Shown here piece after piece: positions 18,463 through 41,159 of a DNA stretch of 64,000 bases. Source of the DNA: Rhodospirillales bacterium (lineage in GTDB: Bacteria > Pseudomonadota > Alphaproteobacteria > Rhodospirillales > UBA2165). The stretch lies in the NCBI GenBank assembly GCA_965213765.1, contig OZ243926.1:2370971-2434970 (forward strand). Direction: 5' to 3'. Made by a program: the position numbers and the translations under genes. How positions within the stretch are numbered: the first letter of the stretch is position 1; the number at the start of each line of letters is the position of its first letter. The notes beneath the pieces were generated by a model. That model was given only the letters and a program-made list of their open reading frames with translations, made no database searches and was not told the origin of the DNA.

Positions 18463-18481
18463 ATGCCGCAGACTGCGCTAC

Positions 18482-18970: not shown

Positions 18971-18991
18971 TTCTTTGTTCCCGCCTCCGGT

Positions 18992-19546: not shown

Positions 19547-19550
19547 TGGG

Positions 19551-19925: not shown

Positions 19926-19935
19926 GACCTCTCTC

Positions 19936-20355: not shown

Positions 20356-20371
20356 GGGGTGTCCTTTCGCA

Positions 20372-23931: not shown

Positions 23932-24040
23932 CGAACAGACCTTGTTTTTAGAATCGTATACGATTTTTCTTGTACGGTATGACGAAATGAATCATTGTGT
24001 CCAGCGAAAACTGTCCGAAACGAAACAGAGTCCTGTACAT

Positions 24041-24706
24041 ATGGTGACGCGTGCAAACACAATTCGGGAGCTGCTGGAGCATGAAATAATCTCCGGCGAA
24101 CGTATGCCGGGAGATCGTCTCGATGAGCCTCAGCTAACCCGCCGGTTCGATGTGTCGCGGACACCCGTCCGCGAAGCGCTGGTCGAACTCGCGGCTGAAG
24201 GACTCGTCGAGATGCAGCCGCATAGGAGCGCAGTGGTCGCAGAGGTAAGCGTCGGCCGGGTCATCGAAATGTATGAGGTGCTCGCCAAATTGGAGGGGCT
24301 CAGTGCCCGGCTAGCCACCCGGCGTATGAAGGAAGACGAACGGAAAGAATTCAAAGCTGTGCACGCGAGGATTGGGCTGATGGTCGAGGCCAATGACCGG
24401 GATTCCTTCCCGGCTCTCAATAGGGAATTCCACAACCTGATTCATCAGGGGGCTCACAACGATGTTCTCAGCGAACAGATAAACGGCCTCAATAAACGGC
24501 TCACGCCTTATCGCAGAATTTATCGCGAGGAGCCGCACGACCTACGAACTCCCCATGAGGAACATGATGGCGTCGTGACGGCGATTATGAATCGGGATGA
24601 GGCCGCCGCCGAGCGGATCTTCAGTGATCACACAGCGCTACGTGCCGAGGCCATGACTGATTTTGTCGCCGCGTTCAAGCGCCGCTTCGAGAGGCAGCCG
24701 GCATAA
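24041..24706 (+). CDS. GntR-family (FadR-type) transcriptional regulator
   Basis: ..LTRRFDVSRTPVREALVELAAEGLVE.. wHTH followed by an FCD-like C-terminal domain; divergent from the ABC operon. Confidence 0.9.
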   Translation: MVTRANTIRELLEHEIISGERMPGDRLDEPQLTRRFDVSRTPVREALVELAAEGLVEMQPHRSAVVAEVSVGRVIEMYEVLAKLEGLSARLATRRMKEDERKEFKAVHARIGLMVEANDRDSFPALNREFHNLIHQGAHNDVLSEQINGLNKRLTPYRRIYREEPHDLRTPHEEHDGVVTAIMNRDEAAAERIFSDHTALRAEAMTDFVAAFKRRFERQPA

Positions 24707-25425: not shown

Positions 25426-25940
25426 AAAATCCGGCGTCGTCCGAGCAATTGGCGCGGATGCGGGTTAACCGGTGCGGATTGTGAATTTAGCCGGCGGATT
25501 GCCGCCGTTCGGCCAAAGCGGCAGCGCGGCGGGTCTTGAACATGTCCCGGCGAATGAGATGGCGTTCTGGATTGAAGTGGTTGTCGATCGAGGCGTGCAC
25601 CGCGGCGAATTTCCGTAGAGTCTTGATATCCCGGAACCGCGCCATGGCTCCTTGTCGCCGTCGAAACGGCTGATGCGAGTTCTCCGCCCGGTTGTTTGCC
25701 CGGCCGCAAACACCGGCCCGAAGCGGTTCCACCGGAAACGAATTGTCTCGCGCCAGATATCGATACCGCGTTCGAACGGCAGATCTTCAAACCTACCCCG
25801 GCGACAACGGATACCGGACATACATCATCACTGTGCGGCGAATGATCCCGGGCGAACTATTGAAATAGCGGAAGGGGTGTTTCATCACCGGAGGCTAAGT
25901 AGCCCGCCCGCCAACCTCAACCCGATTTAGTCCGACAATG
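25426..25940 (-). mobile_element. Internally deleted IS6-family element with both IRs
   Basis: IRs ggcgtcgtccgagcaa (25428-) and agtccgacaatgcc (-25940). N-terminal MKHPFRYFNSSP.. and ..FERGIDIWRETIRFRWNRFGPVF are fused out of frame to ..NNRAENSHQPFRRRQGAMARF.. About 300 bp is near-identical, inverted, to 18160-18462. Confidence 0.85.
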
Positions 25941-26106: not shown

Positions 26107-26400
26107 TTAGGCGTCGGTCGCGTCGAAATGCCGGATGATCGGTGGTTCGGCGAGGGCCTCCATGAGCCGCTCGCTGGTACCCCTCTCCCGTTGCCAGGCT
26201 AGGTATTCTTCGTATTGCTCGCGGGTTTCCCAGACTTCCATCACCACCACATTGTCGGCGTCGTCGCTGTTCCGCAGTGCGTCGACGCTCGTGCAGCCCT
26301 CGTAAGCGCGCGTCTCGGGCAGGATCGACCTGAAGAACGCAATCAACTCGTCCCCGGTGCCGGGCTTCGCCTTGACTTCGAGAATCACTCTTGCAGCCAT
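26107..26400 (-). CDS. Antibiotic-biosynthesis-monooxygenase (ABM) domain protein
   Basis: MAARVILEVKAKPGTGDELIAFFRSILPETRAYEGC..VVVMEVWETREQYEEYLAW. Confidence 0.8.
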   Translation of the reverse strand: MAARVILEVKAKPGTGDELIAFFRSILPETRAYEGCTSVDALRNSDDADNVVVMEVWETREQYEEYLAWQRERGTSERLMEALAEPPIIRHFDATDA

Positions 26401-26521
26401 TTCAATGTCACTCCCTGATTGGTTGTAAGGCGCCGGCATTGCCGGTCCGTAAGTTATGATGGTTTCGCATCCGTCGCGCAACCGGAAAACCATGGGCGCC
26501 CGATCGGGCACGGAAGCCGGT

Positions 26522-26577
26522 TGGCCTGCCCCCGGTTAGTGGTCCACCGCTTAAGTTAGAGTTTGGCGCCGGTTGAG
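26522..26577 (+). repeat. Solo IS-end-like repeat (copy 1)
   Basis: tggcctgccccc..gtggtccaccgcttaagttagagtttggcgccggttgag is about 90 percent identical to 51230-51284. The TG..-type terminus is reminiscent of IS3-family IRs. Confidence 0.45.
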
Positions 26578-26592
26578 TTGATTTTCAGGCCG

Positions 26593-26634
26593 GGCGTTGT
26601 CAGAGCAACTAGCGTCAACTTGAGTAATCTGAAG
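26593..26634 (-). mobile_element. IS6-type terminal fragment (IR plus 25 nt), left half of a split end
   Basis: ggcgttgtcagagcaactagcgtcaacttgagtaatctgaag matches the uninterrupted copy at 17519-17560. It is continued at 38091-38160. Confidence 0.6.
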
Positions 26635-26664
26635 TCGTTGGTTCAAATCCTACCCCCGCAACCA
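26635..26664 (+). other. tRNA 3'-end-like remnant (T-arm, acceptor strand, CCA)
   Basis: tcgttGGTTCAAATCCtacccccgcaACCA. No matching 5' half or cloverleaf could be built upstream. Confidence 0.45.
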
Positions 26665-26713
26665 CTTCAAGCTATTGAAAATGTTGAATTTTTCGAGGGC
26701 TTATTATATTCGG

Positions 26714-26742
26714 AATAGGTAATTTGGCAAGCTGGCAAACTA
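26714..26742. promoter_or_regulatory. Three phased TGGCAA repeats (candidate integrase arm-type sites, left arm)
   Basis: ttggcaag ctggcaaac tattggcaaac. The 21-mer ctggcaaactattggcaaaca recurs at 37940-37960. Confidence 0.4.
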
Positions 26743-26832
26743 TTGGCAAACAATTTGATTCGAACGGTATTCCTTCGGCCAGCGGGTGATGACCCAATGC
26801 ACCACCGCAATCGTTACCGTTCGGTTATCCTT

Positions 26833-27860
26833 TCAATTACCCACATCGTCGATTTTCAGGGTCGCGCCGAGGGCGATGTCGGTCAATCGAGAGAGGCCGC
26901 GCCACATGACGATGTTGCCGGGCGGCGGATCCTTGGCACGGTCGAGATAGCCGCCGAGCCTGGCGATCTTGATGAGGTAGAGCGAGAGCGTCCTGGCAGC
27001 AGGGGGATCGGCGGTGGAATCGGGTATCAGGCGATCGAGGATTTTCGTCTCCAACCCGGTCAGCACCAAGGCTGGTTCGAGGTTTGGCCTGGCGCGGTTG
27101 AGCATAGTCAGCCAGAACACGCGCCAGCTCAGGATACAGAACACCGCGAGCAGCCTGACCAACCGCTCGGCGGTTCGCAACCGGGCTTGTTCGGCCCGGC
27201 AGCCCGATTTCAGGATCTTGTGGAAGACCTCGATCTTCCAGCGCATGGCGTACCATTGCAGCTTCTCCACGGCGTCGTCGTGGCTGTCGACAGGCAGGTC
27301 GGTGATCAGCTTCCAGTCGATGCGGGGGCGACCGACCGGCTCTTCCGGCTCCCGGGCGTGCAACACCGTGAGCATGAGCGTCGGATAGCGCTTCTGTTTG
27401 GCGATCGGTGGCCGGACAGTCATGCGTCGGTAGGAGAGTTCAACCTGCGTGGAGCCAAGCTTGCCTTTGTCGTCGCGGACGGCGACCCGGTGCAGCCCGC
27501 GGACTTTCTCGTCGGTCATGATCGCTTCCACCGTGCGAGACCCGTCCTCGGCGAGCCTGTTGGCAAAGCGTCTGATGACGAAATGCGTGTCCAACTCCCG
27601 GGCCAGGCAGAACAACTCCCAGATGTCGCCTTCGCGGTCGCAGATGTGAACGCAGCGCGCGGGATCACCCAACAGTTCGGTGGATTGCCGGAGATTCTCC
27701 AGCCAGCGCATGCTCTCCTTGCCCTCGATCGGCACGCACGTTGGATTGATCTTCCTCTTGAGGGCGTTCGTCCCCTTGAACTTTTTCCGGGTCCAGAACT
27801 TTGCCGCGGAAATACCCAGTGGCAATCCGTCCGTCGTCACTGTCATCCAGCACAGGTGCG
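26833..27860 (-). mobile_element. IS4-family (Tn5-like) transposase, 5'-truncated
   Basis: ..DGLPLGISAAKFWTR.., ..CDREGDIWELF.., ..LQWYAMRWKIEVFHKILKSGCRAE.. The DNA-binding and first-Asp region is missing. Confidence 0.8.
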
Positions 27861-28010
27861 CCAGCCTGTTCGATCTGAACCGGACGGAAGAGGCGCTCGC
27901 GACCTGCGACCAGGCGATCGACCGGTTCGGGCAGGCGACACCACGCTCACCGCCAGCTTCCTTCCGGCCCGGCCGGTTCCGCCGTGCGCGAAGCCCAAAG
28001 ACCGGGCGCG

Positions 28011-28505
28011 CTAGCGCTGCCAGGTGCAATCGGCCCGGGTGACGAATAGATCGTTCGTCAGGTAATCGGCTTCGTATGAGCACGAACCCGTGACGCCTTC
28101 GAACCTGCCGGTCCCGCCCAGCATTTCGAGGCGTCCCGCGCCGCCTCCGCCCTGGGCGACGTCACCCGCGCTTCTCCTCGAATTCCAGAACTGCTTGTCG
28201 CCCGAGGGGTCCGTCGCGGTGCAGGACGCCCCGAGCTCGGTGCCCGCGGCCGAACTCTTTCCGTGTACGATGCACGTCACCCGGCTGGATCCCCCCTCGA
28301 TGAAGGGTCCGCCGCTGCTCCTGACGATGGTGCTCGTACCCTCCGAGGCGCCGCCGAAGATCGTTCCGCCCATGTGGGCGATCGTGGTGTAACCGCCGGT
28401 CATGCTCGAAACCGATGTGAAGCTGCCGGTTTCGGCGGCGGCCGGGCCGGCGCACACGATCCCGATGGAGATGAACAGCACCGTAATTCCCCTGCTGAAC
28501 GACAT
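28011..28505 (-). CDS. Secreted hypothetical protein
   Basis: MSFSRGITVLFISIGIVCAGPAAAETG.. signal peptide; Gly/Ser/Thr-rich with four Cys; GAGGA RBS. Confidence 0.55.
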   Translation of the reverse strand: MSFSRGITVLFISIGIVCAGPAAAETGSFTSVSSMTGGYTTIAHMGGTIFGGASEGTSTIVRSSGGPFIEGGSSRVTCIVHGKSSAAGTELGASCTATDPSGDKQFWNSRRSAGDVAQGGGGAGRLEMLGGTGRFEGVTGSCSYEADYLTNDLFVTRADCTWQR

Positions 28506-29082
28506 GGCGTTGGTCCTCGGTCTGTTGGAAGTGGTATGTCGATGGTAAACCAATAACCCGGATCCATCACGACGATTTCCGATGTGATTTTTTCGTTTTT
28601 GGCTCACGTCGCTCGATTTCCGGCACACATTTTCCAGTTTTGGGCGCAGCCAGGATTTTGGGGAGGACATAGTCGCGCGTTTTCAATTTATGCGGCATAT
28701 TTTGTGCCGCCTGGACGTGTTTGAGTGACCCCCGCCTGGGAGTTTCTGGATTTCCGGGTTTTCAGGGAAGAGGGCGCTTACGTGGGAGCGAGGGCCCGCC
28801 ATGCGGTGAAGAAGTCGTCTTTGTATGGATAGGCGTCGGGCACCATTGCATAGCCACGGTATTTCATATAGAAGGCGTGCCGTCGCTGGAGGCGCGATAT
28901 TTTATGCATTCGGCGGCTTTTTGGTCGTCGGCAATGGTTGGGGAAACCATGACGGGCATGTTGACGAAGCCGCTGGCCGGCCGGAATGACATGGCTTGCG
29001 GCGATTTTGTTGAGTCGCTCTGCTGCGGCGCAAGAAACTTGCGGCATCTCTTGACATTGGCGGCGGGTGAGGCGGATAAAAT

Positions 29083-29122
29083 GAGCCGCCGAGCCGCCGA
29101 GCCGCCGAGCCGCCGAGCCGCC
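29083..29122. repeat. Octanucleotide tandem repeat (GAGCCGCC)x5
   Basis: Five perfect head-to-tail 8-bp units read directly from the sequence. Confidence 0.95.
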
Positions 29123-29494
29123 GGCGATGAGTCCGTCCGGCCCGCGGCGGGGCCGGTTACGCCGATGGATATGCCCGCCTGAGTTTGCGCGAACCGTTGC
29201 GGACGGGCCGCATCCGGCCGCCAACCCGGTTCCTCCGCCAGCCTCGAACCCTCCTGCCATTGCAGGCCGGCAGTCCGATCAGCCGCCTCGACGACATTCT
29301 CCAAATGCCTTTCGGGCAGGCGCTGGCCCGCACCCCCGACGCTTCATCCTTACTGCCCGGCGGTAATGGGTTTGCGCTATATGCCGCCGCGCGGCGGAAG
29401 CGGAGCGCCTCGGCTCCGCGGATGGCGCGGCCTCCTGTCGGCAGCCTTCAGGGCCTGTCATGCCCTTGTCCCTGCGGCTCCTAAAGGTGGGCAG

Positions 29495-31345
29495 GCCAAC
29501 ATCACGTTTACCGACGCCACTATCACCATCAATGACGATGACGCGGCGCCGAGCGGCATCACGCTGAGCGTGGACACCAACGGTTCGACCTCGGGCACGC
29601 CGAGCACGGTGGCGGAGGACGCCGGGGCCACGGTGGTCACGGTAACGGCGACGGTGAACGGCACCACGCGTTACGTGGACGCCAAGACCGTGGCGGTGAG
29701 CGTGGATGACGGCACCGCGGAATCGCCCGCCGATTATGCGGCGGTGAGCGGCTTCAACATCACGATTGCCGCGGGCGCGGCCAGCCAGAGCGGCAGTTTC
29801 ACCGTGACGCCGGTGGACGACGACCTCGACGAGGCCAACGAGACGATCGACGTCACCGGCACGCTGACCGACATCACGATCACCGCCGCGACGGTGACGC
29901 TGACCGACACCGACGACCCGGTGAGCTTCTCGATCGCCGATGCCGAGGCCACCGAGGGCGGCAAGGTGGAGTTCACGGTGAGCCGCGAAGGGGCCGGGGA
30001 CAACGTGGCGTCGGTGAAGGTGACCACGGCCACGGACAGCGGCGATGGGGCCGATGCCGCCGATGCGGACGACTACACCGCCATCGCCACGGCGCAGACA
30101 TTGAACTTTGCCAAGGGCGTCGCCAGTCAGACGGTGGAGGTGCAGACCACGCAGGACGACCTGTTCGAGCCGGACGAGACGTTCAAGGCGGTCCTGAGCG
30201 CCCCGGCGCTTGGGGAGAACGACCCCGGCACCGGGGTGAGCATTGAGTCGGGCAAGGGCACGGCCACGGGGACAATCAAGAACGACGACACCGAGCCGTC
30301 GTTTGCGGTGGCGGACGCCAGCGCGTCGGAGGGCGATGCCATCACCTTCACGGTGACCCGCTCCGGGGCGATGGACAACGCGGTGTCGGTGAAGTGGAAC
30401 ACCAAGGCGGCGACCGGGGCGGGCGCGGCTTCGATCAGCGATTACACCGCTGTGACGGCGCCGGCGACGCTGACCTTCGCCAAGGGCGTGAGCAGCCAGA
30501 CCTTCACGGTCGCCACCACGGAGGACACGCTGGATGAGGGCAACGAGACCTTCCTGGTGGAGCTGACCGGGGCGGTGGGCGGCACGATTGCCACGGCCGA
30601 GGCCACCGGCACCATCAATGACGATGACGCGGCGCCGAGCGGCATCACGCTGAGCGTGGACACGAACGGTTCGACCGCGGGCACGCCGAGCACGGTGGCG
30701 GAGGACGCCGGGGCCACGGTGGTCACGGTGACGGCGACGGTGAACGGCACGACCCGCTACGTGGATGCCAAGACCGTGGTGGTGAGCGTGGATGACGGCA
30801 CCGCGGAATCGCCCGCCGATTATGCGGCGGTGAGCGGCTTCAACATCACGATTGCCGCGGGCGCGGCCAGCCAGAGCGGCAGTTTCACCGTGACGCCGGT
30901 GGACGACGACCTCGACGAGGCCAACGAGACGATCGACGTCACCGGCACGCTGACGCCCACCGATGACGACCTGCACGAGGGCAGCGAGACGATTGACGTT
31001 ACCGGTACCTCGAACGCGCTCACCATCACCAAGGCTTCGATCACCCTTGAAGACGACGACGCTCAACCGTCGTTTGCGGTGGCCGACGCGAGCGCGTCGG
31101 AGGGCGACGCGATCACCTTTACGGTGACCCGTAGCGGGGCGATGGACAACGCGGTGTCGGTGAAGTGGAACACCAAGGCGGCCACCGGGGCGGGCGCGGC
31201 TTCGACCACCGACTACACCGCGATGCCCACGGCGACGAAGCTGGATTTCGCCAAGGGCGTGGGCAGCCAGACCTTCGCGGTCGCCACCACCGAGGACACG
31301 CTGAACGAGGCCAACGAGACCTTCCTGATAGAGCTGACCGATCCC
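29495..31345 (+). pseudogene. Calx-beta repeat adhesin-like gene fragment (both ends missing) with a 1086-bp internal tandem duplication
   Basis: Repeated ..ADYAAVSG..ITIAAGAASQSGSFTVTPVDDDLDEANETIDV.. and ..DYTA....L.FAKGV.SQTF.V.TTEDTL.E.NETF.. units. No signal peptide. Blocks 29528-29868 and 30614-30954 are near-identical. Confidence 0.8.
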
Positions 31346-31485
31346 GTCGGCATCACGGTGAGCACGTTGCGGCCGGCCAGGAGCGCCTCGATGGCCGCTT
31401 CCTGGCCCGGCCGGAACCCGTCGAACCCAAATACATCCCTCAGCACCTGGCGTGCGGCGGCTGTCGGTTCCTCCAACGTGCGCAT
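31342..31485 (-). pseudogene. RecQ helicase N-terminal stub (about 48 aa)
   Basis: MRTLEEPTAAARQVLRDVFGFDGFRPGQEAAIEALLAGRNVLTVMPTG, then the homology stops where the Calx-beta fragment abuts. Confidence 0.6.
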
Positions 31486-31528
31486 CAGTGCCGAAACCGG
31501 GAGAGGTCAACCAGGGATCAGGCGGAGA

Positions 31529-31813
31529 TCACGCGCCCGCCGCCCTCTTCAACGCGGCGGACGGCCGGAATTTGAGAACCTTGGAGGCCTTGATCCGGAT
31601 CGCTTCGCCCGTCCGCGGATTGCGGCCCTTGCGCGCCGGACGCCTGGTAATGGTGAAGGTGCCGAAGTTGCCGATGGTGTAGCGGCCTTCCTTCTTCGAC
31701 TTCTTCAGCCCGGCCTCGATCTCGCCCAGGACAAGGTCGACCGTGCGCTTGGCCTCCGCCTTGCTCATGTTGCCCTTCGCGGCGATGTTCTCGATGAATG
31801 CGGCTCTGCTCAT
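31529..31813 (-). CDS. HU/IHF-family nucleoid-associated DNA-binding protein
   Basis: ..FGTFTITRRPARKGRNPRTGEAIRIKASKVLKFRPSAALK. Confidence 0.9.
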   Translation of the reverse strand: MSRAAFIENIAAKGNMSKAEAKRTVDLVLGEIEAGLKKSKKEGRYTIGNFGTFTITRRPARKGRNPRTGEAIRIKASKVLKFRPSAALKRAAGA

Positions 31814-32033
31814 GATGTGTGGCCTCTTTGTTTTCCGAACCGAAACTGTCTCACAAGGCCGCTACATATAGTGGCCTCATGCCTGTGTGTATACTATAAA
31901 CGGCTCCAGGTTGCATATGATCGCGGCTCCCTGTTCGAACCGCGCGGCTGGGCGGTAATGCAGGAAGCAGCCACGGCGGCGTTTCTCCAAGGAAGCCGCG
32001 CACCGGATTCGCGTGCTTGAAGAACTATAGCGG

Positions 32034-32375
32034 ATGCGCTATATGGTGGAGATGGACTGGACGGTCGAAACCGTGTCGGCCGTTGACGCCGAAATCGCGG
32101 CCTTGCCGGTAGCGTTGCGCGCGCGGTTGTTGCGGCTGCTTGAGACGGTGGAGAATGTCGGGCTGGAGACTCTTCGCGCACCGCATGTCAAACATCTCGA
32201 TGGGAAGCTCTGGGAGCTTCGGGTGCGGGCAGACGGCGGTATCGCACGAGGGATCTACGTAACGGCGGCGGGCCGGCGGGTGGTGGTGTTGCACGTCTTC
32301 GCGAAGAAATCGCGCAAGACGCCGCGCCGAGCGCTCGCGACCGCCAGGGAGCGGATGAAGCAGGTGATGACATGA
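32034..32375 (+). CDS. RelE/ParE-superfamily toxin (Gp49/HigB-like)
   Basis: ..HVKHLDGKLWELRVRADGGIARGIYVTAAGRRVVVLHVFAKKSRKTPRRALATARERM. Confidence 0.8.
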   Translation: MRYMVEMDWTVETVSAVDAEIAALPVALRARLLRLLETVENVGLETLRAPHVKHLDGKLWELRVRADGGIARGIYVTAAGRRVVVLHVFAKKSRKTPRRALATARERMKQVMT

Positions 32376-32656
32376 CGAAGCTGAGGGATCTGAAGGCGCG
32401 CTTGATGGAGGATCCGGAGTTCCGGGAGGAATACGTGCGCGTCGACGAGGAGTATGCGCTCATTGAGGCGTTGGTCCGCGCCCGCGCGGCGGCGAAGCTG
32501 ACGCAGGCGGAGCTTGCCCGGCGGCTCGGCACGACCCAGTCGGCGGTCGCTCGGCTGGAAGGCGGACGGGTGTCTCCGTCCTTCGCGACCCTTCGCCGCT
32601 ATGCCGAAGCGACCGGCACGCGGCTGACCGTGGGCCTTGTGCCGGCTGACGGCTGA
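32372..32656 (+). CDS. XRE-family HTH antitoxin (HigA-like)
   Basis: ATGA overlap with the toxin gene; ..KLTQAELARRLGTTQSAVARLEGGRVSPSFATLRRYAEATG. Confidence 0.85.
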   Translation: MTKLRDLKARLMEDPEFREEYVRVDEEYALIEALVRARAAAKLTQAELARRLGTTQSAVARLEGGRVSPSFATLRRYAEATGTRLTVGLVPADG

Positions 32657-33045
32657 GGCATTGCGCTCGGGCTGGCGGAGCGGCAGGGGCACGCCTGGAT
32701 GAAGCGGCTGGACGCCGGCGGCTACGATCTGGGCCGGGGCAAGCGCGTCCTGGCAAGGGACGGCCGGTTGGTGCGCCGCTACGGGATCACCGTGCCGAAA
32801 ACGATGCATGGATAGCCTCTCGCCTTGCTACGATGGCCGCCAGGCCGGGCCCGGATATTCATCGATCAGTAACTTCAACGCGATCCGGCCGGCTGAGTTG
32901 GATGTCGGATGACGCCTTCGGCTGATCCGACCTGGATCAGTTGCCCGATGTCGTCGCCACATCGACGATCTTGCCGGTCCGCGTCATGGTGCTCGGGAAT
33001 CCCACCCGCTCGCCACAGTGTCATCGGGAATAGCGGCTGGGCCGC

Positions 33046-33450
33046 TCACGATGCCGTCTCATCGGGTTGCTCATTCCGCTTTCGCCTTTGTTCGAGGCCC
33101 TGCATCGTGACCTCGTCCAGTTCCGGCTCGTCCCACTTCCCGGCCTCCATCGCCGCCCGTTCGAGCATGCCGAGGAACTCCATGTCGCCGGATTTAAGGT
33201 TGACGGTATAGAGGCGGTTGACGATCTGGCGCATCAGCTCGCGCATCTCGTCCTGTTCGATGTGCGCCACCTCCGTCCAGGGAATCCGCCGGCCGTTCGC
33301 ATCGATCACCACGACATCGGAGAAATCCCCGGTATGGGTCACCGGATGAATCCCGCCATGGAAGTCTTCGAGAATCGTATTGCGAACGCACATGACGGCC
33401 ATGGCCTTCGCCGGAAAGGATGCGACCGCGACTTCGTGTTCCCCCACCAT
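33046..33450 (-). CDS. Hypothetical protein (possibly frameshifted at the 5' end)
   Basis: 134-aa ORF. A second frame (33339..33575) reads into it, suggesting a longer ancestral gene. Confidence 0.4.
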   Translation of the reverse strand: MVGEHEVAVASFPAKAMAVMCVRNTILEDFHGGIHPVTHTGDFSDVVVIDANGRRIPWTEVAHIEQDEMRELMRQIVNRLYTVNLKSGDMEFLGMLERAAMEAGKWDEPELDEVTMQGLEQRRKRNEQPDETAS

Positions 33451-33651
33451 GCCCCGGCGCCCCGCTCCTTGCTATCCATCTGCCGTCCGAAAGCATAGCC
33501 GCCCGTCGGTTTCACGGCAACGTACGCCCAGGCAAGACGGCCGTCGACCGTGAGAGCGGCTGCGGCGGCGTCCACCGCATGGCTGGGACATTACGGGCTC
33601 CTGTGGAACGATATTTTACAAATCGGAATTTCCTAGTTTAGGGTCTTAGAT

Positions 33652-34104
33652 TTATTTCCCGTAGCGCGGCTTGCGACGCATTTTTGCCGCTCGCTCTACA
33701 CCGAGCTGCGGTAGGACAACCCATCGCAAATCCATTTTTCGGACGCGGGCAATGGCACTGAGCCATGCGGACTTATGGTCTTCGCGGTCCATGTCCAAGG
33801 GCTTGCCGACCTGCTCCCACGTCAGCAAATACGCTAGATTGCATCCGCCTATTTGCCGAGTGGCTCCAGCTGTCGGACCATATCGCCGGATCGGCAGGAT
33901 ATCCGCCCGACCTGAAATAAGGTGATGCCGGAAAACACGCTGCCGGATGCCCTGGGCGGCACTGCCGATGTACATCACCTCATTGCCTTCGGTGAACATG
34001 TAGACTCCCGGTTCTTCTGGGAATTTGTCAGCTACCAAGTCGCCAGCCTTGTGGGGCGTGGCGTCCAAGAGGGCTTGCACATAGTCGTCAACCGGAGCCG
34101 TCAT
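33652..34104 (-). CDS. GIY-YIG-like nuclease-domain protein
   Basis: ..EEPGVYMFTEGNEVMYIGSAAQGIRQRVFRHH.. resembles the GIY-(10-11)-YIG..R motif. Confidence 0.5.
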   Translation of the reverse strand: MTAPVDDYVQALLDATPHKAGDLVADKFPEEPGVYMFTEGNEVMYIGSAAQGIRQRVFRHHLISGRADILPIRRYGPTAGATRQIGGCNLAYLLTWEQVGKPLDMDREDHKSAWLSAIARVRKMDLRWVVLPQLGVERAAKMRRKPRYGK

Positions 34105-34147
34105 TCATCGTCTCCCAGCGACAGCGGGATGTTACAAATTGCGCCCA

Positions 34148-35329
34148 TCAGGATTCCCTCCGATCTTCCATTCGCTCCAGCATTTCGCTCAGGTCGGTCA
34201 GGGGAACCACCTCTCCGTCCCGCCGGGATTGTCGATCCGCACCTCCATAGACAACAGTCCTGGTGGCGATTTCCGGGAGCTCTTTCGCTACCCGGTTGAG
34301 CGAATCGAACCAGTCGGAAGCGACCGTCGCACCGGACTTAATCTCTATCGCCGCCATGCCGTGGCCGTTCTCATACAGCAGGTCGCACTCGATACCACGG
34401 CTGTCCCGGAAGAAGGACAGGTTGGATCGGCGGCCCCGATTGAAACGGTGCTTGAGCGCCTCCACCACGACGGCATTCTCGAACAGCGGCCCGCGAAGCG
34501 GGTGCGTGCCGATCTGTGCGGCGTGTTCAATACCGATGAGGTGACTCGCCAGCCCGACATCGTAGAAGTAGATCTTCGGCGACTTGACCAGCCGCTTGCG
34601 GATATTGGCATGAAACGGCGGGAGCCGGAACACGACATAGCTCGCCTCCAGAACCGTCAGCCAATGGCTTGCCGTGGTGTGGGACACCCCGGCATCCGCA
34701 CCCAGGGACGAGAGATTGACCAGTTGCCCTATGCGCCCGGCGCACAGGCGGACAAACCTGCGGAAGTGTTCAAGATTCCGGATCTCGCCGATCCTGCGCA
34801 CGTCGCGCTCGACGTAGGTCTCGAAATAGTCGCCAAGCGCCTGCCGAGGCTCGAGCTTCCGGTTGTGAATCCGGGGATAGAAGCCGGAATACAGGATGTC
34901 GTCGATGTTGTCGCTCGCGCCCGTCCGCCGCCGTTCGGCCAGCGAGAACGGCAGCAGGCGAAGCAAGGCCGTGCGCCCGGCAAGCGACTGGCTTATGGCG
35001 TCGGAGAGCCGGAATTGCTCGCTCCCGGTCAGAACGAACAAGCTGTTCCGCCCCGCCTCGTCCGCCAGAACCTGCAGAAAGGACAGAAGTTCGGGGACAC
35101 GCTGGATTTCATCAAGGATGGCCCCTTCGCCAAGCCGCGCAAGAAACCCCCGCGGATCGGATTCGGCGAATTCCCGCTGATCGGGCGCTTCCAGATTGAC
35201 ATAGTCGAGATGCGGGAAGGCAGCGCGGCAGAGCGTGGTCTTGCCGGATTGCCGCGGTCCGGTCACCGTGACGAAGGGGTATTGCTTGAACAGGCCGACG
35301 AGGCAGGGTGCGATCTCGCGCTCGATCAT
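34148..35329 (-). CDS. AAA-type ATPase with DUF4143 domain (COG1373-like)
   Basis: MIEREIAP..VTVTGPRQSGKTTL.. Walker A, ..ILDEIQRVPEL.. Walker B, DUF4143-like C-terminus. Confidence 0.85.
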   Translation of the reverse strand: MIEREIAPCLVGLFKQYPFVTVTGPRQSGKTTLCRAAFPHLDYVNLEAPDQREFAESDPRGFLARLGEGAILDEIQRVPELLSFLQVLADEAGRNSLFVLTGSEQFRLSDAISQSLAGRTALLRLLPFSLAERRRTGASDNIDDILYSGFYPRIHNRKLEPRQALGDYFETYVERDVRRIGEIRNLEHFRRFVRLCAGRIGQLVNLSSLGADAGVSHTTASHWLTVLEASYVVFRLPPFHANIRKRLVKSPKIYFYDVGLASHLIGIEHAAQIGTHPLRGPLFENAVVVEALKHRFNRGRRSNLSFFRDSRGIECDLLYENGHGMAAIEIKSGATVASDWFDSLNRVAKELPEIATRTVVYGGADRQSRRDGEVVPLTDLSEMLERMEDRRES

Positions 35330-35355
35330 GGCGCACAGTACCGGATGATCGCGCA

Positions 35356-35385
35356 ATTTGCAAATACTATTTGCAAATTGCAAAT
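35356..35385. promoter_or_regulatory. Clustered ATTTGCAAAT palindromes upstream of the ATPase gene (candidate operator)
   Basis: Perfect 10-bp palindromes at 35356-35365 and 35369-35378, plus an overlapping 9-bp variant at 35377-35385. They lie 27-56 nt upstream of ATG 35329. Confidence 0.4.
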
Positions 35386-35554
35386 CAAGGTGGCCGAGGA
35401 TAGCCCTTCCACCGAGGCGATGGCGCGGGGCCTTCCGGAGTTGACGTACGGTCCGCCAACCTCAAAGACGACCGCCATGCCATACAGGTAAGTTGATGGG
35501 CCGACCGCGGCCCGCTCAGACGCGGCTGACGGTCCAGACCACCCGGCCGACCAC

Positions 35555-36529
35555 ATGGGCGTCTTCGGCGAGGCAGGTATGGGCACCAACGCGATCATGC
35601 GCGAGACCGGCAAGTCCAAGACTTGCGTCTGGCGCTGGCAGGAGCGCTTTGCTGAAGAGGGCGTAGAGGGCCTGCTGCGCGACAAGACCAGACCCTCGCG
35701 AATTGCGCCGCTGCCGCCCGAGGTGGCCGGGCGGGTGGTGGAACTGACCTTCACCGAGCCGCCCGCCGAGGCCACGCACTGGACCGGAGCGATGATGGCC
35801 GAGGCAGTCGGGATCAGCGTCAGTTCGGTACACCGCATCTGGCGGGCCCACGGCCTGCGGCCGCACCGGGTGCGCCAGTTCAAGCTCTCCAACGATCCCG
35901 AGTTCGTCACCAAGCTGCGCGACGTGGTCGGGCTCTATGTCGATCCCCCCGCCCACGCCATCGTCCTCTCGGTCGATGAGAAGTCGCAGATCCAAGCCCT
36001 CGATCGCACTCAGCCCGGCCTGCCCCTGAAGAAGGGTCGGGCCGGCACCATGACCCACGACTACAAACGCAACGGTACCACCACCCTGTTTGCCGCCCTC
36101 AACGTGCTCGACGGCACCGTGATCGGGCGCTGTATGCAGCGCCACCGTCACCAGGAATTCCTCCGCTTCTTGAAGGCCGTCGAGCGTGAGGCGCCAGTCG
36201 GCAAGATGGTGCACGTGATCCTCGACAACTATGCCGCCCACAAGCATCCCAAGGTGCGCGCCTGGCTCGCCCGTCATCCGCGCTTCGTCTTCCACTTCGT
36301 GCCGACCTCGTGCTCCTGGCTCAACGCCGTCGAGGGATACTTCGCCAAGCTCTCCAGACGCCGTCTCAAGCGCGGTGTCTTCAGATCCGTGGTCGACCTG
36401 CAAACCGCCATCAATCGATTCATCGACGAGACCAATGATGACCCCAAGCCCTTCGTCTGGACCGCCGATCCCGACAAAATTATCGCCGCCGTCAAACGGG
36501 GGCATCAAATGTTAGATTCAATCCACTAG
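35555..36529 (+). mobile_element. IS630-family transposase, probably 5'-truncated element
   Basis: ..THWTGAMMAEAVGIS..SVDEKSQIQALDR..ILDNYAAHKHPKV..FVPTSCSWLNAVEGYF.. The usual N-terminal ~30 aa are missing, and no left-end partner was found for the right end ..ttagattcaatccactag. Confidence 0.85.
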
Positions 36530-36713
36530 CGCAGCTTCTGCTCGAGGATACACGGGTCGTATTGCCGGAATCCGTCCACCGGGATCTTCGCGTTTTCGTC
36601 GACCTGGTTCACGCGGACCAAACTCTCGATCCCACGACATTTGACGTTCCCTTCACCCGAGACGAGGCAACCGATCTTCTCCGCACGGTGTACGGGCTGA
36701 CATAGTCGGAGCG

Positions 36714-37901
36714 TCAATCCTCGACGAGTCTGGAACCGACGTCGTGATCACCCACGAGGTTCCCGCCGATGCTTTCTGTGATGCGCGCCGCAGCGGTCTG
36801 AATCGAGTCCCGCGCCAGATGCGCGTAGCGCGCCGTCGTTTGCACCTGGGTGTGCCCGAGCAGTTTCCCGATCATGGTCAGGCTCTCGCCGAGAGCCAGC
36901 GCACGCGAGGCAAAAGAATGTCTCAGATCGTGGATCCGCACGTCCTCGAGGCCCGCCTGCTTGCGGATGCGCTGCCAGGGGCGTTGCAGGTCGGTGAGGT
37001 GAGAGCCGGGGAGGCGGCCCGCGATGACCCAGGGATTGTCATCGTCACGGGGAATGGCTGACAACACCGCCCGGGCCTCGGGGCCCAGAGGTACGACCCG
37101 TCCGCCGGTCTTGGCGTCGGGAAGCTCGATGCAATCGTCCTTGACGTACTCCCAGCGCAGGAACTGGATCTCCGACAGCCGGCAGCCGGTCAGCAGCAAC
37201 AAGCGGAAGGCGGCGACCGCCGAGGGCATCTCTTCTTCGGCCTCGCGCAGGACCTGGCCCAGCCGTTCCGTCTCTTCCGGCGACAGGAAGCGCTCCCGCT
37301 TGTGCTCCTTGTAGCGCTTGACATGCCGGCAGGGATTGGAGCCGTCGGGTCGCCAGCCCCAGACTTCGGCAAGGGAGAACATTTTGGATAGCACTGCGAG
37401 CGTCCGGTTGGCCTGATAGGGTTTGTCCCGCAGGCCGTGATGCAGGGCGGCAATATCCTTGCGCTGCACCTCCGGAACCTGCAACTCACCGATCACGGGG
37501 TCGACAAACAGCCTCACCGAACGGCGGTACTCTTCCCGGGTGCTCGGCTTGCAGTGGACAGGGACATATTCCTCCAGGAACCTGCGTCCGAGATCAGCCA
37601 TGTTCCGCTCGGCTTCGCGCCGGGCGTCCGCGTCGCGGGGGTCGATGCCTTTCTTCGCGGAAGCCAATATCTCAAGCGCGCGGGCACGCGCCTGATCCGG
37701 GTTCAGAGGCCCATGCGGGCCGATGGTGAACCAGCACAGTTTCCCGGCGATGCGGGTCTGAACGACGTAGCTCTTGCGTCCCGAGCGCCGAACACGCAGG
37801 CCGAAGCCTGTGAGTTCTCCATCCCAATAGACGGTATCCGTCCCACCGGCCTTGACGGCATCGACGGAGCGCTTGGTGATACGGGGGATGCGGTTTGCCA
37901 C
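36714..37901 (-). CDS. int: Tyrosine recombinase, P4-type integrase with DUF4102 arm-binding domain
   Basis: GTG 37901 with an AAGGAG RBS; ..YWDGELTGFGLRVRRSGRKSYVVQ..; catalytic region ..LLLLTGCRLSEI.., ..HDLRHSFAS.., ..LLGHTQVQTTARYAH. Confidence 0.9.
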   Translation of the reverse strand: MANRIPRITKRSVDAVKAGGTDTVYWDGELTGFGLRVRRSGRKSYVVQTRIAGKLCWFTIGPHGPLNPDQARARALEILASAKKGIDPRDADARREAERNMADLGRRFLEEYVPVHCKPSTREEYRRSVRLFVDPVIGELQVPEVQRKDIAALHHGLRDKPYQANRTLAVLSKMFSLAEVWGWRPDGSNPCRHVKRYKEHKRERFLSPEETERLGQVLREAEEEMPSAVAAFRLLLLTGCRLSEIQFLRWEYVKDDCIELPDAKTGGRVVPLGPEARAVLSAIPRDDDNPWVIAGRLPGSHLTDLQRPWQRIRKQAGLEDVRIHDLRHSFASRALALGESLTMIGKLLGHTQVQTTARYAHLARDSIQTAAARITESIGGNLVGDHDVGSRLVED

Positions 37902-37939
37902 GGCATTGCTCCTTGACGGGGGAGGGAGCATGTATCATC

Positions 37940-37960
37940 CTGGCAAACTATTGGCAAACA
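37940..37960. promoter_or_regulatory. TGGCAA direct repeats (candidate arm-type sites or int operator, right arm)
   Basis: ctggcaaactattggcaaaca is identical to 26722-26742 and lies 39-59 nt upstream of the int start. Confidence 0.4.
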
Positions 37961-38090
37961 CTTTCAGGTAAACCACAGCGCATTCCTGCGTACGTCTGTC
38001 GTAGAAAGAATCAATAAATCCCTTGTAATACAACGTTTTATCATACTCCTGCGCACGTGTGCGCATCCTTGTCCACTAGGTGAAATGAAA

Positions 38091-38160
38091 TGAGTAATCT
38101 GAAGGCACAGTGGTTCTAGCCGTCGGGTTGCCGCCGTTCGGCCAAAGCGGCAGCACGGCA
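38091..38160 (-). mobile_element. Right half of the split IS6-type end (transposase C-terminal codons), then truncated
   Basis: tgagtaatctgaaggcacagtggttctagccgtcgggttgccgccgttcggccaaagcggcagc. The reverse complement encodes ..AAALAERRQPDG-stop. Colinear with 17547-17600. Confidence 0.6.
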
Positions 38161-38172: not shown

Positions 38173-39474
38173 CTACAATGCGGTTCTCGGCAGCCACAAC
38201 GCTATCTGCGAAAACAGGAGCAGCAGAACCAGCAATACGGTCTGCGCCGCGACAAATGGGATCACGCCCTTATAGATCGTCATCAGCGGCACATCGTTCG
38301 CCATGCCTTTTAGGACAAAGACGTTGATGCCCATCGGCGGCGTTATAAGCGCGAGTTCGACCACAACGACGATCACGATGCCGAACCAAACGGGATCAAA
38401 GCCCAGGCCAATCACCAGCGGGAAAAAGACCGGGATCGTCAACAAGATCATGGCCAGCGTGTCCAGCACGGCACCCAGGACGATGTAAATCAGGAGGATG
38501 ACGATCATCATGCCCATGGGTGTCAGGGATAGCCCCGCCATGAAACTCTCGATCATCGTCGGAACTTGAGCCAGCGCCATAAAATTCTTGAAGATGATGG
38601 CGCCGATCAGGAGCGTAAAGATCATCGCCGTCGTGCGAACGGTATCGAGGAGCGCCGCCATGAAACTGGCGCGGCTCACGCGTCGGCCCAGCAGACCCAA
38701 CAGCCACGCGCCCACCGCGCCGATCCCCGCAGCCTCCGTGGGCGTAAACACGCCGAGATAAATACCGCCCAAAACAACGGTGAAGAGCGCAAGCGTGCCC
38801 CCGATCTTCCGGAAGGCGGCGCGCTTTTCGGCCGCCGTCGACGGCTCGCCCGGCGGCCCCATCGAAGGTCGAACCAGCGTTACCAGCCAAACCACAATAA
38901 GGAAAAGTACGACCAACAGAATTCCCGGAATAACCCCGGCCAAGAAAAGATCGCCGATGCTGGTCTCGGTCAGTATGCCGTAGAGCACCATGATGACGCT
39001 GGGTGGAATGAGGATGCCGATCGTGCCGCCTGCGGCGATCACCCCGGTCGCCAACTGGTCGCTATAGCCGTACCGCCGCATTTCCGGCAGGGCGACCTGG
39101 CTCATCGTGGCGGCGGTCGCGAGCGAAGACCCCGATATGGCACCAAACGCGCCGCAGGCGCCGACGGTCGCCATGCCCAATCCGCCGCGTCGGCCGCCCC
39201 ACCATGTGTTGAAAGCGCTGTAAAGATCGCCGCTCAGCCCGGCACTGGTCGCGAAGAAACCCATCAAAAGGAACAAAGGAATGACACTGAGTTCGAAGTT
39301 GAAGGCGGTTTCGAGCACCGTCTGTCCCAACAAGGCTAGGGCCGCATCCGGTGACAGGATGACCAGCATGCCGAGGAAACCGGCAAGCGCCATCGCGAAC
39401 CCGATATGCATGCCGAACGCCAGCAGCACGAACATAAGCCCGGTGACAAGCAGCGCGGCAAGCGGGGCGCTCAT
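38173..39474 (-). CDS. TRAP transporter large permease (DctM family)
   Basis: 433-aa polytopic protein, paralogous to 14102-15412. Confidence 0.95.
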   Translation of the reverse strand: MSAPLAALLVTGLMFVLLAFGMHIGFAMALAGFLGMLVILSPDAALALLGQTVLETAFNFELSVIPLFLLMGFFATSAGLSGDLYSAFNTWWGGRRGGLGMATVGACGAFGAISGSSLATAATMSQVALPEMRRYGYSDQLATGVIAAGGTIGILIPPSVIMVLYGILTETSIGDLFLAGVIPGILLVVLFLIVVWLVTLVRPSMGPPGEPSTAAEKRAAFRKIGGTLALFTVVLGGIYLGVFTPTEAAGIGAVGAWLLGLLGRRVSRASFMAALLDTVRTTAMIFTLLIGAIIFKNFMALAQVPTMIESFMAGLSLTPMGMMIVILLIYIVLGAVLDTLAMILLTIPVFFPLVIGLGFDPVWFGIVIVVVVELALITPPMGINVFVLKGMANDVPLMTIYKGVIPFVAAQTVLLVLLLLFSQIALWLPRTAL

Positions 39475-40019
39475 GGATCGATCCGTTCCTCAGGGGTCGG
39501 TCTTTGGAACAGCGTCAAGCCCGCCCGGTGGAGGTGGAACAATAGTCCGGCGACCATGGTCAAGCTGCAGGCGGCCATAACCAGCGCGGCCGCCCAGACC
39601 GGCAAGCCCAGTACCTGTGTTTCGTTCAACTCCCGGGTCTGATCGAGCGCCACCAGGAGCAGCTGCCAGCACATCAATGCCGCGATGGTAAGGCTTAGGA
39701 CATGGACGATGACATTGACCAATGCCTGAATCGTGTGGGGCATGATCCGCGTCAGGACGTCGACGCGGATATGGCCCTCCTCGAATGTCGTAAGGCCGAC
39801 GCCGAGAAAAACCAGCATCCCCATCAGCAGGAAGATGATCTCGACGGAACCGGTAATGGGCCGGTTGAATACGAACCGTCCGATGACGTCAATGAATGTG
39901 ACGTACATCATCAGGGCGAGAACCATCGCCGCCCCGATTGCCAGAATGTACGCGACACGCCCGACGAACCGGCCGACAGGGCCTTGTGCCGGTGATTTCG
40001 ATTCGTCGGGGGTATTCAC
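39471..40019 (-). CDS. TRAP transporter small permease (DctQ family)
   Basis: 182-aa four-TM protein with a 4-nt overlap with the DctM gene. Confidence 0.9.
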   Translation of the reverse strand: MNTPDESKSPAQGPVGRFVGRVAYILAIGAAMVLALMMYVTFIDVIGRFVFNRPITGSVEIIFLLMGMLVFLGVGLTTFEEGHIRVDVLTRIMPHTIQALVNVIVHVLSLTIAALMCWQLLLVALDQTRELNETQVLGLPVWAAALVMAACSLTMVAGLLFHLHRAGLTLFQRPTPEERIDP

Positions 40020-40050
40020 ATCGGTGCCGTTTTGACCGTATCGTTGGGCG

Positions 40051-41082
40051 CTACTCGTACTTTTTGACGGTTTTTCGAAGATCGGCCATCGATGCCTTTC
40101 CGTTCAGGCCGGCGGCGTTTGCTTTCTTGATCCAACCCTCCTCGAAGAAGGACGTGACAGACCGGAGTTTGGCGGTATCGGCATCGCCCAGAATGACGAT
40201 CTTGTTGCCGTTCGCGACGGCAGCCTGTTTCGCCTTCGCCTCAACGGCGTCCCAGCGCTGGCCGATCAACTTTGATCCCGACAGTCCGTTGTCGGAGAAC
40301 GCCTTTTGTTGGGCCGGCGTCAAACCGCTCCAGGCCTTTTTGCTCATGGCGATCCAGAAGGCCGTCGAATACAGGCCGTTGGGGATCACCAGGTGATGGG
40401 TGGTCATTTTCGTGAGCCGAAAACCGGCAAGGCCTTCCCACGGAAACTGGGTTGCGTCGACCGTGCCACGTTGAACCGCCTCGGTGACACCGCTCGGCGG
40501 AATGAATACCGGGGCGGCGCCGAGGCGTTTCAGTATCTCGATGCCGATACCGCCGGCCCTCACCTTCAGCCCCTTGAGATCGCCGAGGCCGTTGATCGGC
40601 TTGCGCGAATGATAAAGAAATGGCGCCGGCGTGAAGGCGCCGATCAGCTTGGCGTCGTGAAACTCCTTGTCGGCCTGGCCGGTGCGCATGTACCAGTCCC
40701 ACATGCCGGCTGAACCGGAAGTCGCGTTATTGACCGTAAAGGGAACTTCAATCCCCCGAAACAGCTGAAAACGCTTGGGCGTAAACGCCGCGACACCAAA
40801 GGCGATATCGGCGATTCCTTTCTTGACCAAGTCATACTGGCCGGGCGCCTTGGCCAGGGGCGCTTTCATCAGGTTGATCTTGACCGATCCGCCGGACGCC
40901 TTTTCGATTACGGCGGCCCATATCGGTATCGCCTTTTGCATGTGGTGAACCGGCGGCAGCCAATTCGCCATGCGAAGGTCTTTGGTTTGCGCGGCGGCGC
41001 CACCCGATCCGCCGATTGCGAGACCGGCGGCCGCCGCCAAGGCCAGCACGTAGTTGGGTCTAATTTTCAAGTATTTATTCAT
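40051..41082 (-). CDS. TRAP substrate-binding protein (DctP family)
   Basis: ATG 41082 with an AGGAGG RBS; signal peptide MNKYLKIRPNYVLALAAAAGLAIGGSGGAAA. Confidence 0.9.
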   Translation of the reverse strand: MNKYLKIRPNYVLALAAAAGLAIGGSGGAAAQTKDLRMANWLPPVHHMQKAIPIWAAVIEKASGGSVKINLMKAPLAKAPGQYDLVKKGIADIAFGVAAFTPKRFQLFRGIEVPFTVNNATSGSAGMWDWYMRTGQADKEFHDAKLIGAFTPAPFLYHSRKPINGLGDLKGLKVRAGGIGIEILKRLGAAPVFIPPSGVTEAVQRGTVDATQFPWEGLAGFRLTKMTTHHLVIPNGLYSTAFWIAMSKKAWSGLTPAQQKAFSDNGLSGSKLIGQRWDAVEAKAKQAAVANGNKIVILGDADTAKLRSVTSFFEEGWIKKANAAGLNGKASMADLRKTVKKYE

Positions 41083-41159
41083 TTCATACCTCCTATTGAG
41101 CATTTGTGTTAAGTCTCGCCGCTGTCGGAAGCGGTCGTTTCAAGGACTGGCAGCGAACT

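Follow-up and report, generated by a model that had tools for sequence, protein, structure and literature searches.

A P4-like integrase island with a variant attachment core at the relic of an IS6 end in a Rhodospirillales genome

The window analyzed here is a 64,000-nucleotide stretch from a Rhodospirillales bacterium (GenBank assembly GCA_965213765.1, contig OZ243926.1, positions 2,370,971 to 2,434,970). Downstream of dctM it contains an 11.5-kb island (26635-38090) with an integrase gene at one end and a fragment of initiator tRNA-fMet at the other, flanked by two pieces of an insertion sequence (IS) end of the IS6 family and by two copies of a 14-mer, TGAGTAATCTGAAG. Most probably this is a degenerate P4-like integrase island of a tRNA-fMet-targeting family, which carries a variant core in its attachment site (attP) and was integrated at the relic of the IS6 end.

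The split IS6 end and its empty allele

The island ends and the IS6 sequences beside them comprise the following features.

17518-17610, plus strand: IS6 right end, uninterrupted reference copy (copy A), with the right inverted repeat (IRR), TGAGCAATCTGAAG and the last approximately 11 transposase codons on the minus strand
26592-26634, plus strand: outer part of the IS6 relic (relic D), IRR GGGCGTTGTCAGAGCAAC and spacer, with core copy 1 at its end
26621-26634, plus strand: core copy 1 (left junction, attL), TGAGTAATCTGAAG
26635-26664, plus strand: island copy of the 3' 30 nucleotides (nt) of initiator tRNA-fMet (variable loop, T arm, acceptor, CCA)
26665-26780, plus strand: P' arm, a degenerate terminator-like hairpin and then phased TGGCAA(G/A)C repeats
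36714-37901 (37931), minus strand: P4-like tyrosine integrase gene, 395 amino acids from a GTG behind AAGGAG, or 405 amino acids from an ATG at 37931
37902-38090, plus strand: P arm, with a 21-mer, a 7-2-7 inverted repeat and the variant stretch CCACTAGGTGAAATGAAA at 38073-38090
38091-38104, plus strand: core copy 2 (right junction, attR), TGAGTAATCTGAAG
38105-38160, plus strand: inner part of relic D, transposase stop codon and last approximately 13 codons on the minus strand

The IS6 family to which these sequences belong has four ends in the window, and its inverted repeat GGCGTTGTCAGAGCAAC occurs there four times versus 0.2 expected. Ends B (18193-18468, reversed) and C (25432-25707) include the C-terminus of a DDE_Tnp_IS240 transposase (PF13610 match), and ends A and D constitute a second subtype. 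The approximately 90 bp common to the IS6 ends consist of the IRR, a short spacer, and the transposase stop codon with the last approximately 13 codons on the minus strand. Assignment to IS6 is based on the GG-starting repeat and the DDE_Tnp_IS240 domain of the family, relic D itself retaining just the IRR and about 13 codons. Copy A, which abuts a truncated IS6 transposase N-terminus, is laid out as GGGCGTTGTCAGAGCAAC...TGAGCAATCTGAAG followed directly by GCACTGTGGTTCTAGCCGG, and reads continuously as GGGCGTTGTCAGAGCAACCAGCATCAACTTGAGCAATCTGAAGGCACTGTGGTTCTAGCCGG. Relic D has a total length of 98 bp and breaks off 13 bp away from the stop codon of dctM; its right piece (38091-38160) consists of the 14-mer TGAGTAATCTGAAG and then GCACAGTGGTTCTAGCCG. 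Joined via one 14-mer, its two pieces are collinear with copy A and, more distantly, with ends B (from 18468, reverse complement) and C (from 25432).

In relic D, downstream of dctM, the 14-mer has the transposase stop codon on one side and the inverted repeat on the other; it is missing from ends B and C. Apart from the exact copies at 26621-26634 and 38091-38104, the window contains near-copies only at 17547 (one mismatch, in copy A) and at an unrelated position, 32382. The window is GC-rich; of its 58 repeat pairs that reach 14 bp or more, about 30 are unrelated and due to chance. The pair is thus not rare by itself, but a chance repeat was rejected because its position coincides with the exact break of the IS alignment and because an empty site exists.

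This empty site was found in two contigs (L099 and L100) of the closely related assembly ERZ25070917, retrieved by look-up of the window's DctM protein. In both contigs dctM is directly followed by an ABM-monooxygenase gene, the counterpart of which lies to the left of the island in the window (26107-26511), and the DNA between the two genes, GGCCGGGCGTTGTCAGAGCAACTAGCGTCAACTTGAGTAATCTGAAGGCACAGTGGTTCTAGCCG, is relic D uninterrupted, with a single 14-mer. By blastn, L099 1061-11384 aligns with window 48416-38091 (98.95% identity) and L099 11371-14998 with window 26634-23007 (99.89% identity); in L099 the two alignments have exactly the 14 bases of TGAGTAATCTGAAG in common. The identity to the empty site begins exactly at TGAG at the right junction and ends exactly after GAAG at the left junction, which places the crossover within the 14-mer. 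With one core in the empty site and two in the occupied site, window 26635-38104 (the island and one TGAGTAATCTGAAG) is a precise insertion, or else L099 and L100 show a precise excision, and the IS6 target natively held the whole 14-mer. A restored bacterial site (attB) would read CAACTTGAGTAATCTGAAGGCACAG.

An earlier note, made from the letters of the window alone, had pointed to an uninterrupted IS6 end near 17519-17600, to a second such end split by the island (26593-26634 and 38091-38160), and to the 14-mer duplicated at the two break points; each is as it had described. The comparisons by which it proposed to be judged also came out in its favor: in the intact copies (copy A and L099/L100) IS sequence, not the tRNA-like segment, follows the 14-mer, and in L099 and L100 the two IS6 pieces are contiguous and so belong to one element.

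Initiator tRNA-fMet junctions of the family and the variant core

The integrase gene stands behind a 190-bp arm at the right end of the island, whereas the left end begins with TCGTTGGTTCAAATCCTACCCCCGCAACCA, followed by the second arm. The integrase matches Phage_integrase (PF00589, E = 5.8e-21), Arm-DNA-bind_3 (PF13356, E = 8.4e-13) and, weakly, Phage_int_M (PF22022), and is of full length, with 100% query coverage by P0001-P0004, siblings at 96-98% identity. Homologs number more than 7900 at E < 1e-30, with over 120 clusters at 93-98% identity, and a scan of species-representative genomes located 79 integrase loci, mostly in metagenome-assembled genomes (MAGs) of Alphaproteobacteria, several of them labelled sponge-derived. 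The population represented by ERZ25070917 holds multiple copies of the family: at least five contigs (L006, L087, L096, L097 and L098) encode integrases 96-98% identical to that of the window, and their junctions are all different. In one homolog as called (P0007, 591 amino acids), the integrase is fused to Recombinase and Zn-ribbon domains. L097 encodes two more tyrosine integrases and then a Cas9-like protein (17923-21218; HNH_4, RuvC_III, weak Cas9_a), the latter gene cluster being approximately 7 kb from the family integrase.

The two arms of the island share the identical 21-mer CTGGCAAACTATTGGCAAACA (26732-26752 and 37940-37960), predicted to contain arm-type sites, which recurs in the P arms of siblings and in the P' arm of L073. 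The inverted repeat TGCGCAC-GT-GTGCGCA (38050-38065) and the TGGCAAAC repeats are also kept in siblings. In L073 a canonical tRNA half is followed by the same P' arm as that of the window's island, GGCTGGCAAACAATTGGCAAACATTTTGATTCGAAC; thus, both arms are features of the family.

At about 55 loci (integrase identity 60-98%) the arm beside the integrase gene has NNAAA as its last bases, after which comes CTCATAACCTGAAGGTCG(T/C/A)(T/A)GGTTC(A/G)AATCC..CCCCCGCAACCA, or in short form NNAAA and then CTCATAACCTGAAGGTCG..GGTTCAAATCC..CCCCCGCAACCA. Beginning at the first base of the anticodon loop, this 44/45-mer represents initiator tRNA-fMet through to its 3' end. In E. coli it has a 91% full-length match to the tRNA-Met class (median four places per genome), one copy of which, metY, is located between argG and rimP, and a full gene sharing the tRNA 3' half of the relatives was called tRNA-Met(CAT) by ARAGORN. 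The acceptor end, CCCCGCA-A-CCA, implies a C1xA72 mismatch, which is typical of bacterial initiators.

In the relatives the tRNA end is followed by terminator hairpins and then by phased direct repeats of at least six kinds. At 100-250 bp past the tRNA halves of L001-L098, these repeats are GGGAATC, CAACAC, TTCGGAAxG, GGTACC, CGTAAGC and TGGCAAAC (for example, in L001 9600-9760, L004 6330-6450, L007, L011 and L009). They resemble P' arms that belong to other island families, arrayed in tandem at tRNA-fMet. A conserved CCGAGACCGACAT flank stands directly after the tRNA half in L018, L026, L037, L041, L060, L063, L064, L066, L071 and L098, and in the last of these a large serine recombinase gene was called at the flank.

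Window 26635-26664, just inside the left core, equals the last 30 nt of the 44-nt half seen beside the integrase gene in the approximately 55 relatives. No tRNA or RNA family was found in the window by ARAGORN and Rfam, so this segment is a 3' fragment only. It is also decayed: one variable-loop G is missing, and the T stem is a mismatched hybrid (GTTGG/CCTAC), the T stems in relatives being GTTGG/CCAAC or GTAGG/CCTAC. With such a T stem it could no longer rebuild a working tRNA; the decay fits a release from the constraint of doing so. In scans of metagenome and viral contigs, the one-G variant of the tail gave four matches, one of them labelled tRNA-Met(CAT) and none with the variant core.

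The canonical core is CTCATAACCTGAAGG, between GAAA and TCGTTGG; the two junctions of the window's island, by contrast, reconstruct TGAGTAATCTGAAG between the same flanks. The 17 core-adjacent bases of the P arm are changed as well (CCACTAGGTGAAATGAAA versus canonical CTATCATATGTAACGAAA), while the rest of the P arm and the integrase are 97-98% identical to those of canonical siblings. This variant (TGAGTAA for CTCATAA, with the changed P arm) was found only in the window's island and in L006 (contig ERZ25070917:ctg122553), the integrase of which is 98% identical to the window's. The two islands have approximately 4.7 kb of cargo in common; in place of the recQ stub of the window, L006 has a complete recQ together with a topoisomerase gene. 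L006 possesses the same variant P arm, plus TGAGTAATCTGAA, and at its junction, GTGAAATGAAATGAGTAATCTGAAAGTCGGCGTCATCGGC, a 3-hydroxyisobutyrate-dehydrogenase-like gene, MSNLKVGVIGLG, has its start codon joined to the core. The empty counterpart of this second site was found in L091 (..GGACAAATGAGTAACCTGAAAGTCGG / ..CGGAGAGGACAAATGAGTAACCTGAAAGTCGGCG..), the dehydrogenase of which is 98% identical; synteny between L091 and L006 starts 2 bp before the dehydrogenase ATG. A 78% ortholog of the dehydrogenase natively has the same N-terminus, MSNLKVG.

Two unrelated native sites, each containing TGAGTAA(T/C)CTGAA, hold the variant element: the variant core is at non-tRNA sites in both of its known copies, the canonical core in none of about 55. 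The other contigs of the same assembly as L006 that have integrases 96-98% identical to the window's (L087, L096, L097 and L098) are all canonical, and a third member of the variant sublineage was not found among them. The variant pattern of P arm and core had no matches in metagenome contigs or in viral contigs. L012 and L072 (95% identical) were considered as new sites and rejected, their P arms being missing through truncation. A change of integrase specificity was likewise rejected: no integrase residue is common to both variant copies yet absent from the canonical ones. When the variant stretch of the P arm was compared by eye with the sequences flanking the IS6 and dehydrogenase sites, 9-10 of 15-20 bases matched, no better than the 13/20 to the canonical P arm, so no origin is claimed for this stretch.

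Reverse-complemented, the canonical CTCA gives TGAG, the first four bases of the variant overlap (38091-38094). Because TGAG is native to the dehydrogenase start, the match is probably a coincidence. At attR of L006 (9842-9882) the dehydrogenase open reading frame (ORF) and its ATG are intact but the upstream region is replaced by the P arm of the island, on which expression of the dehydrogenase would then depend.

Origin of the variant core and rival explanations

The norm for this family would be integration into the initiator tRNA-fMet gene by crossover at or near the anticodon loop, the crossover region mapping to the anticodon-loop/variable-loop stretch. Each element would bring the 3' 44 nt of the tRNA and a terminator, by which the gene would be rebuilt. 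At the window's locus the integrase would have recombined the variant attP with the fortuitously identical 14-mer of the IS6 relic by reciprocal exchange, with a 7-bp overlap inside the 14-mer. The predicted products are an attL composed of the IS6 outer part, the core, the island's tRNA tail and the P' arm, and an attR composed of the P arm, the core and the IS6 inner part; the circle junction of the variant attP would read CCACTAGGTGAAATGAAATGAGTAATCTGAAGTCGTTGGTTCAAATCCTACC. The target of the window's island is an IS6 relic and not a tRNA gene. It is a secondary site, differing from the primary site, tRNA-fMet, and having its core in common with attP; it is a perfect (14/14) match to the reconstructed variant core rather than a weak pseudo-site of a canonical element. 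The proposal of the earlier note that a tRNA-targeting island had entered a pseudo-attachment site within an IS6 end is supported by the empty site and by the tRNA-fMet junctions of the relatives. These junctions also supply the cognate tRNA for which it called and identify its tRNA-3'-like segment as the 3' end of the initiator; the P4-type integrase (36714-37901), the 21-mer on both arms and the 7-2-7 inverted repeat to which it had drawn attention are present, the last two being conserved in relatives.

Identity of the overlap (6-8 bp) is needed by most tyrosine recombinases (PMC2817482). An attP with TGAGTAA would on this general requirement be excluded from tRNA-fMet (CTCATAA), and would instead be directed to sites with the new 7-mer and an adjacent CTGAAG. 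The variant core may have arisen when an element passed through a secondary site whose overlap was heterologous. A plausible candidate for the first such site is the dehydrogenase start, which matches the canonical attP at 16/21 positions; excision from it could have released an element with its overlap switched. It is about an even chance that the two variant copies represent a natural site-affinity switch, in which a tRNA-fMet lineage changed its overlap from CTCATAA to TGAGTAA, kept the same integrase, and now moves between fortuitous TGAGTAA-CTGAA sites.

Several observations weigh against integration by this route. No circular form or attP junction was seen, the attP being reconstructed from attL and attR only, and the attL of L006 is a prediction (GGAGAGGACAAATGAGTAA(C/T)CTGAAGTCGTTGGTTCAAATCCTACCCCCGCAACCA, then a TGGCAAAC-type P' arm). 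In the core-proximal part of the variant P arm, about 7/20 positions are changed relative to the canonical one, which a simple overlap swap does not explain; simple passage through a secondary site also leaves unexplained the T in TAATCTG of L006 and the G missing before TCGTTGG. That T is a C in the empty site L091, and may be a strain polymorphism or element-derived. No intact tRNA-fMet gene was found within 10 kb of any integrase locus, so that integration into the intact gene is deduced only from the 44-nt halves and terminators; the absence fits an integrase located at the end distal to the rebuilt tRNA, with the heads of the arrays unseen. No excisionase gene was recognized in the island, the autonomous mobility of which is therefore doubtful, and the genes adjacent to the integrase gene in L006 are replaced by an IS630 element. 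The window's island may no longer move on its own; sibling integrases, many of them in the same population, could act in trans.

Direct recombination of a canonical CTCATAA element, independently, with the IS6 site and with the dehydrogenase start is an unlikely alternative in which the identical 14-mers at the ends would be products of heteroduplex repair or gene conversion towards the target, and the common TGAGTAATCTGAA would reflect look-alike native sites. TGAGTAA(T/C)CTGAA is indeed present natively in both sites, CTGAAGG is common (7/7) to the canonical attP and the IS6 site, and the 16/21 match of the dehydrogenase start is to the canonical attP. However, both non-tRNA copies carry the element-borne variant of the core-proximal P arm, which is found in none of about 55 canonical relatives, the siblings of 96-98% identity in the same assembly included. 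Moreover, reciprocal exchange with an overlap of 6-8 bp cannot render both junctions target-like over at least 8 bases, and the identity of overlaps that most tyrosine recombinases require (PMC2817482) speaks against the exchange itself. Independent recombination of this kind would not lead one to expect TGAGTAAT beside the tRNA tail in a free attP or in the attL at the dehydrogenase.

The IS6 relic matches the reconstructed attP core at 14/14 positions, which might also suggest that the sublineage is a specialist for which this IS6 end is the regular primary target; of its two known copies, however, one is in IS6 and one at a gene start. Copy A, which represents the same IS6 end but for one mismatch, is empty, ends B and C in the window lack the 14-mer, and no further copy of this type of IS6 end was found in about 1.8 Mb of related loci; specialization is accordingly very improbable. 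As IS debris fills the region, transposition of the segment (for example, by the internal IS4-like or IS630 transposases) with a 14-bp duplication, an IS6-mediated rearrangement and an assembly artefact were considered, and were rejected on the anatomy of the ends together with the empty site; this group of explanations is hardly credible. Reading of the island ends revealed no terminal inverted repeats, and no inverted-repeat pair was reported there. Instead, the island terminates exactly with a P arm and a P' arm, those of an integrase attachment system conserved in relatives, and the break matches, to the base, the position at which relatives switch from P arm to tRNA. An IS6-mediated event would not break up an IS6 end and duplicate 14 bp in doing so, and the island plus one core is precisely what distinguishes the filled allele from the empty one.

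Integration of a tRNA-fMet-family island at the IS6 relic has parallels in known systems. Phage P4 and the CP4-type islands of enterobacteria are P4-like (Arm-DNA-bind_3 / DUF4102) integrase islands at tRNA genes. The window's island and its family resemble them in the domain architecture of the integrase, in an attP that contains the 3' part of the target tRNA, in direct repeats at both ends and phased repeats on both arms, and in the apparent tandem accretion of islands at one tRNA gene. Unlike them, the family targets initiator tRNA-fMet, with a block of identity that starts at the anticodon loop, and has the integrase at the end distal to the rebuilt tRNA; the window's copy, moreover, is outside any tRNA gene and its tRNA tail is decayed. 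Secondary attachment sites are known for lambda and ICEBs1, and SGI1 has a second attB between sodB and purR and forms tandem arrays (PMC2297512). The use of a non-primary site resembling the core, occupied and empty alleles that differ by the element and one core, and tandem arrays are features shared with these three. Their secondary sites were used where the primary site had been removed or at low laboratory frequency, in contrast to the natural polymorphism in metagenome assemblies observed here, where the landing site is the relic of an insertion sequence.

Weisberg and colleagues reportedly found in 1983 that in lambda saf mutants changes of the overlap, acquired by excision from secondary sites, redirect integration with Int unchanged. 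Reprogramming of the overlap is also described for the mv4 integrase (10.1101/2023.11.06.565760). As in lambda saf, the two variant copies appear from their sequences to combine the same integrase protein with a core changed in cis and new sites that all have TGAGTAA; unlike lambda saf, about 7/20 adjacent P-arm bases and two bases on the P' side are changed, which is more than a pure overlap swap.

Integration into secondary sites is fairly ordinary. A changed attachment core of an island is less so; also less common are a natural variant core that two copies at different non-tRNA sites share, with both empty sites found, an unchanged integrase and an IS relic as the landing site. Known mechanisms are not overturned. 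The two sites provide base-exact occupied and empty alleles of a tRNA-targeting island outside tRNA genes, with a predicted attP, so that target choice by a P4-like integrase becomes directly testable with a handful of synthetic attachment sites, and a leftover IS end is seen to be able to receive an integrase island. If the site-affinity switch is real, the target choice of P4-like integrases would be set in cis by the core, as seen in wild populations, and the variant lineage, shut out of tRNA-fMet, would illustrate the birth of new integration specificities. The tRNA-fMet locus in these Alphaproteobacteria MAGs appears to hold tandem arrays of many island families; the borders of such islands can therefore be called from the 44-nt tRNA halves.

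Cargo and neighboring features

Between the P' arm and the integrase gene, the island contains the following features.

26833-28083, minus strand: IS4/Tn5-like transposase fragment, with weak DDE_Tnp_1 and Dimer_Tnp_Tn5 matches
28552-28842, no strand assigned: segment 95% identical to DNA of L096, where it adjoins a CAACAC-type P' arm and a Calx-beta gene
29366-31335, plus strand: Calx-beta repeat ORF fragment with internal 300-nt repeats; the listed ORF extends to 32020
31213-31485, minus strand: recQ 5' stub; homology to the L006 island stops at about 31335
31529-31813, minus strand: gene for an HU-type DNA-binding protein, conserved in L006
32034-32656, plus strand: genes for a Gp49/HigB-like toxin (32034-32375) and a helix-turn-helix antitoxin (32372-32656), conserved in L006
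34148-35383, minus strand: ATPase gene with AAA_14 and DUF4143 domain matches
35555-36529, plus strand: IS630-family transposase gene, in place of two genes adjacent to the integrase gene in L006

Compared with L006, the island is broken inside recQ at about 31335 and its left third is foreign. The cargo is a mosaic of at least two island types and IS debris, to which the segment at 28552-28842 testifies, and the integrating unit either was already mosaic or was rearranged later. The 3' approximately 700 nt of the Calx-beta ORF are not real coding sequence, as they are antisense to the HU gene and the recQ stub. The cargo list of the earlier note was mostly right, but its GIY-YIG-like gene is unsupported (only DUF123, E = 0.049), and the IS630 transposase gene, which it had listed as cut at the 5' end, looks nearly full length. 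A megablast of window 17-41 kb against a plasmid collection gave matches only to copies of IS630 and IS4. The internal 300-nt repeats of the Calx-beta fragment (29511-31352) are 86-96% identical, and an 8-nt tandem repeat, (GAGCCGCC)n, is located at 29083-29115.

Outside the island, IS6 ends A and B enclose a small secreted or lipoprotein-like ORF (17756-18116, plus strand) composed of 54-nt (18-amino-acid) tandem repeats. Two apparently paralogous three-gene operons (13044-15955 and 38173-41103, both on the minus strand) are linked by a repeat, D9, of 70% identity; in the second, just downstream of which the island is located, DctM (38173-39474) was confirmed by Pfam, and DctP and DctQ were called in L099. 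Collinear short repeats to the left of the island recur approximately 25 kb away (26522-26569 and 51230-51277; 24207-24342 and 50984-51119; 23952-23988 and 50878-50914), and look like a duplicated intergenic or regulatory segment.

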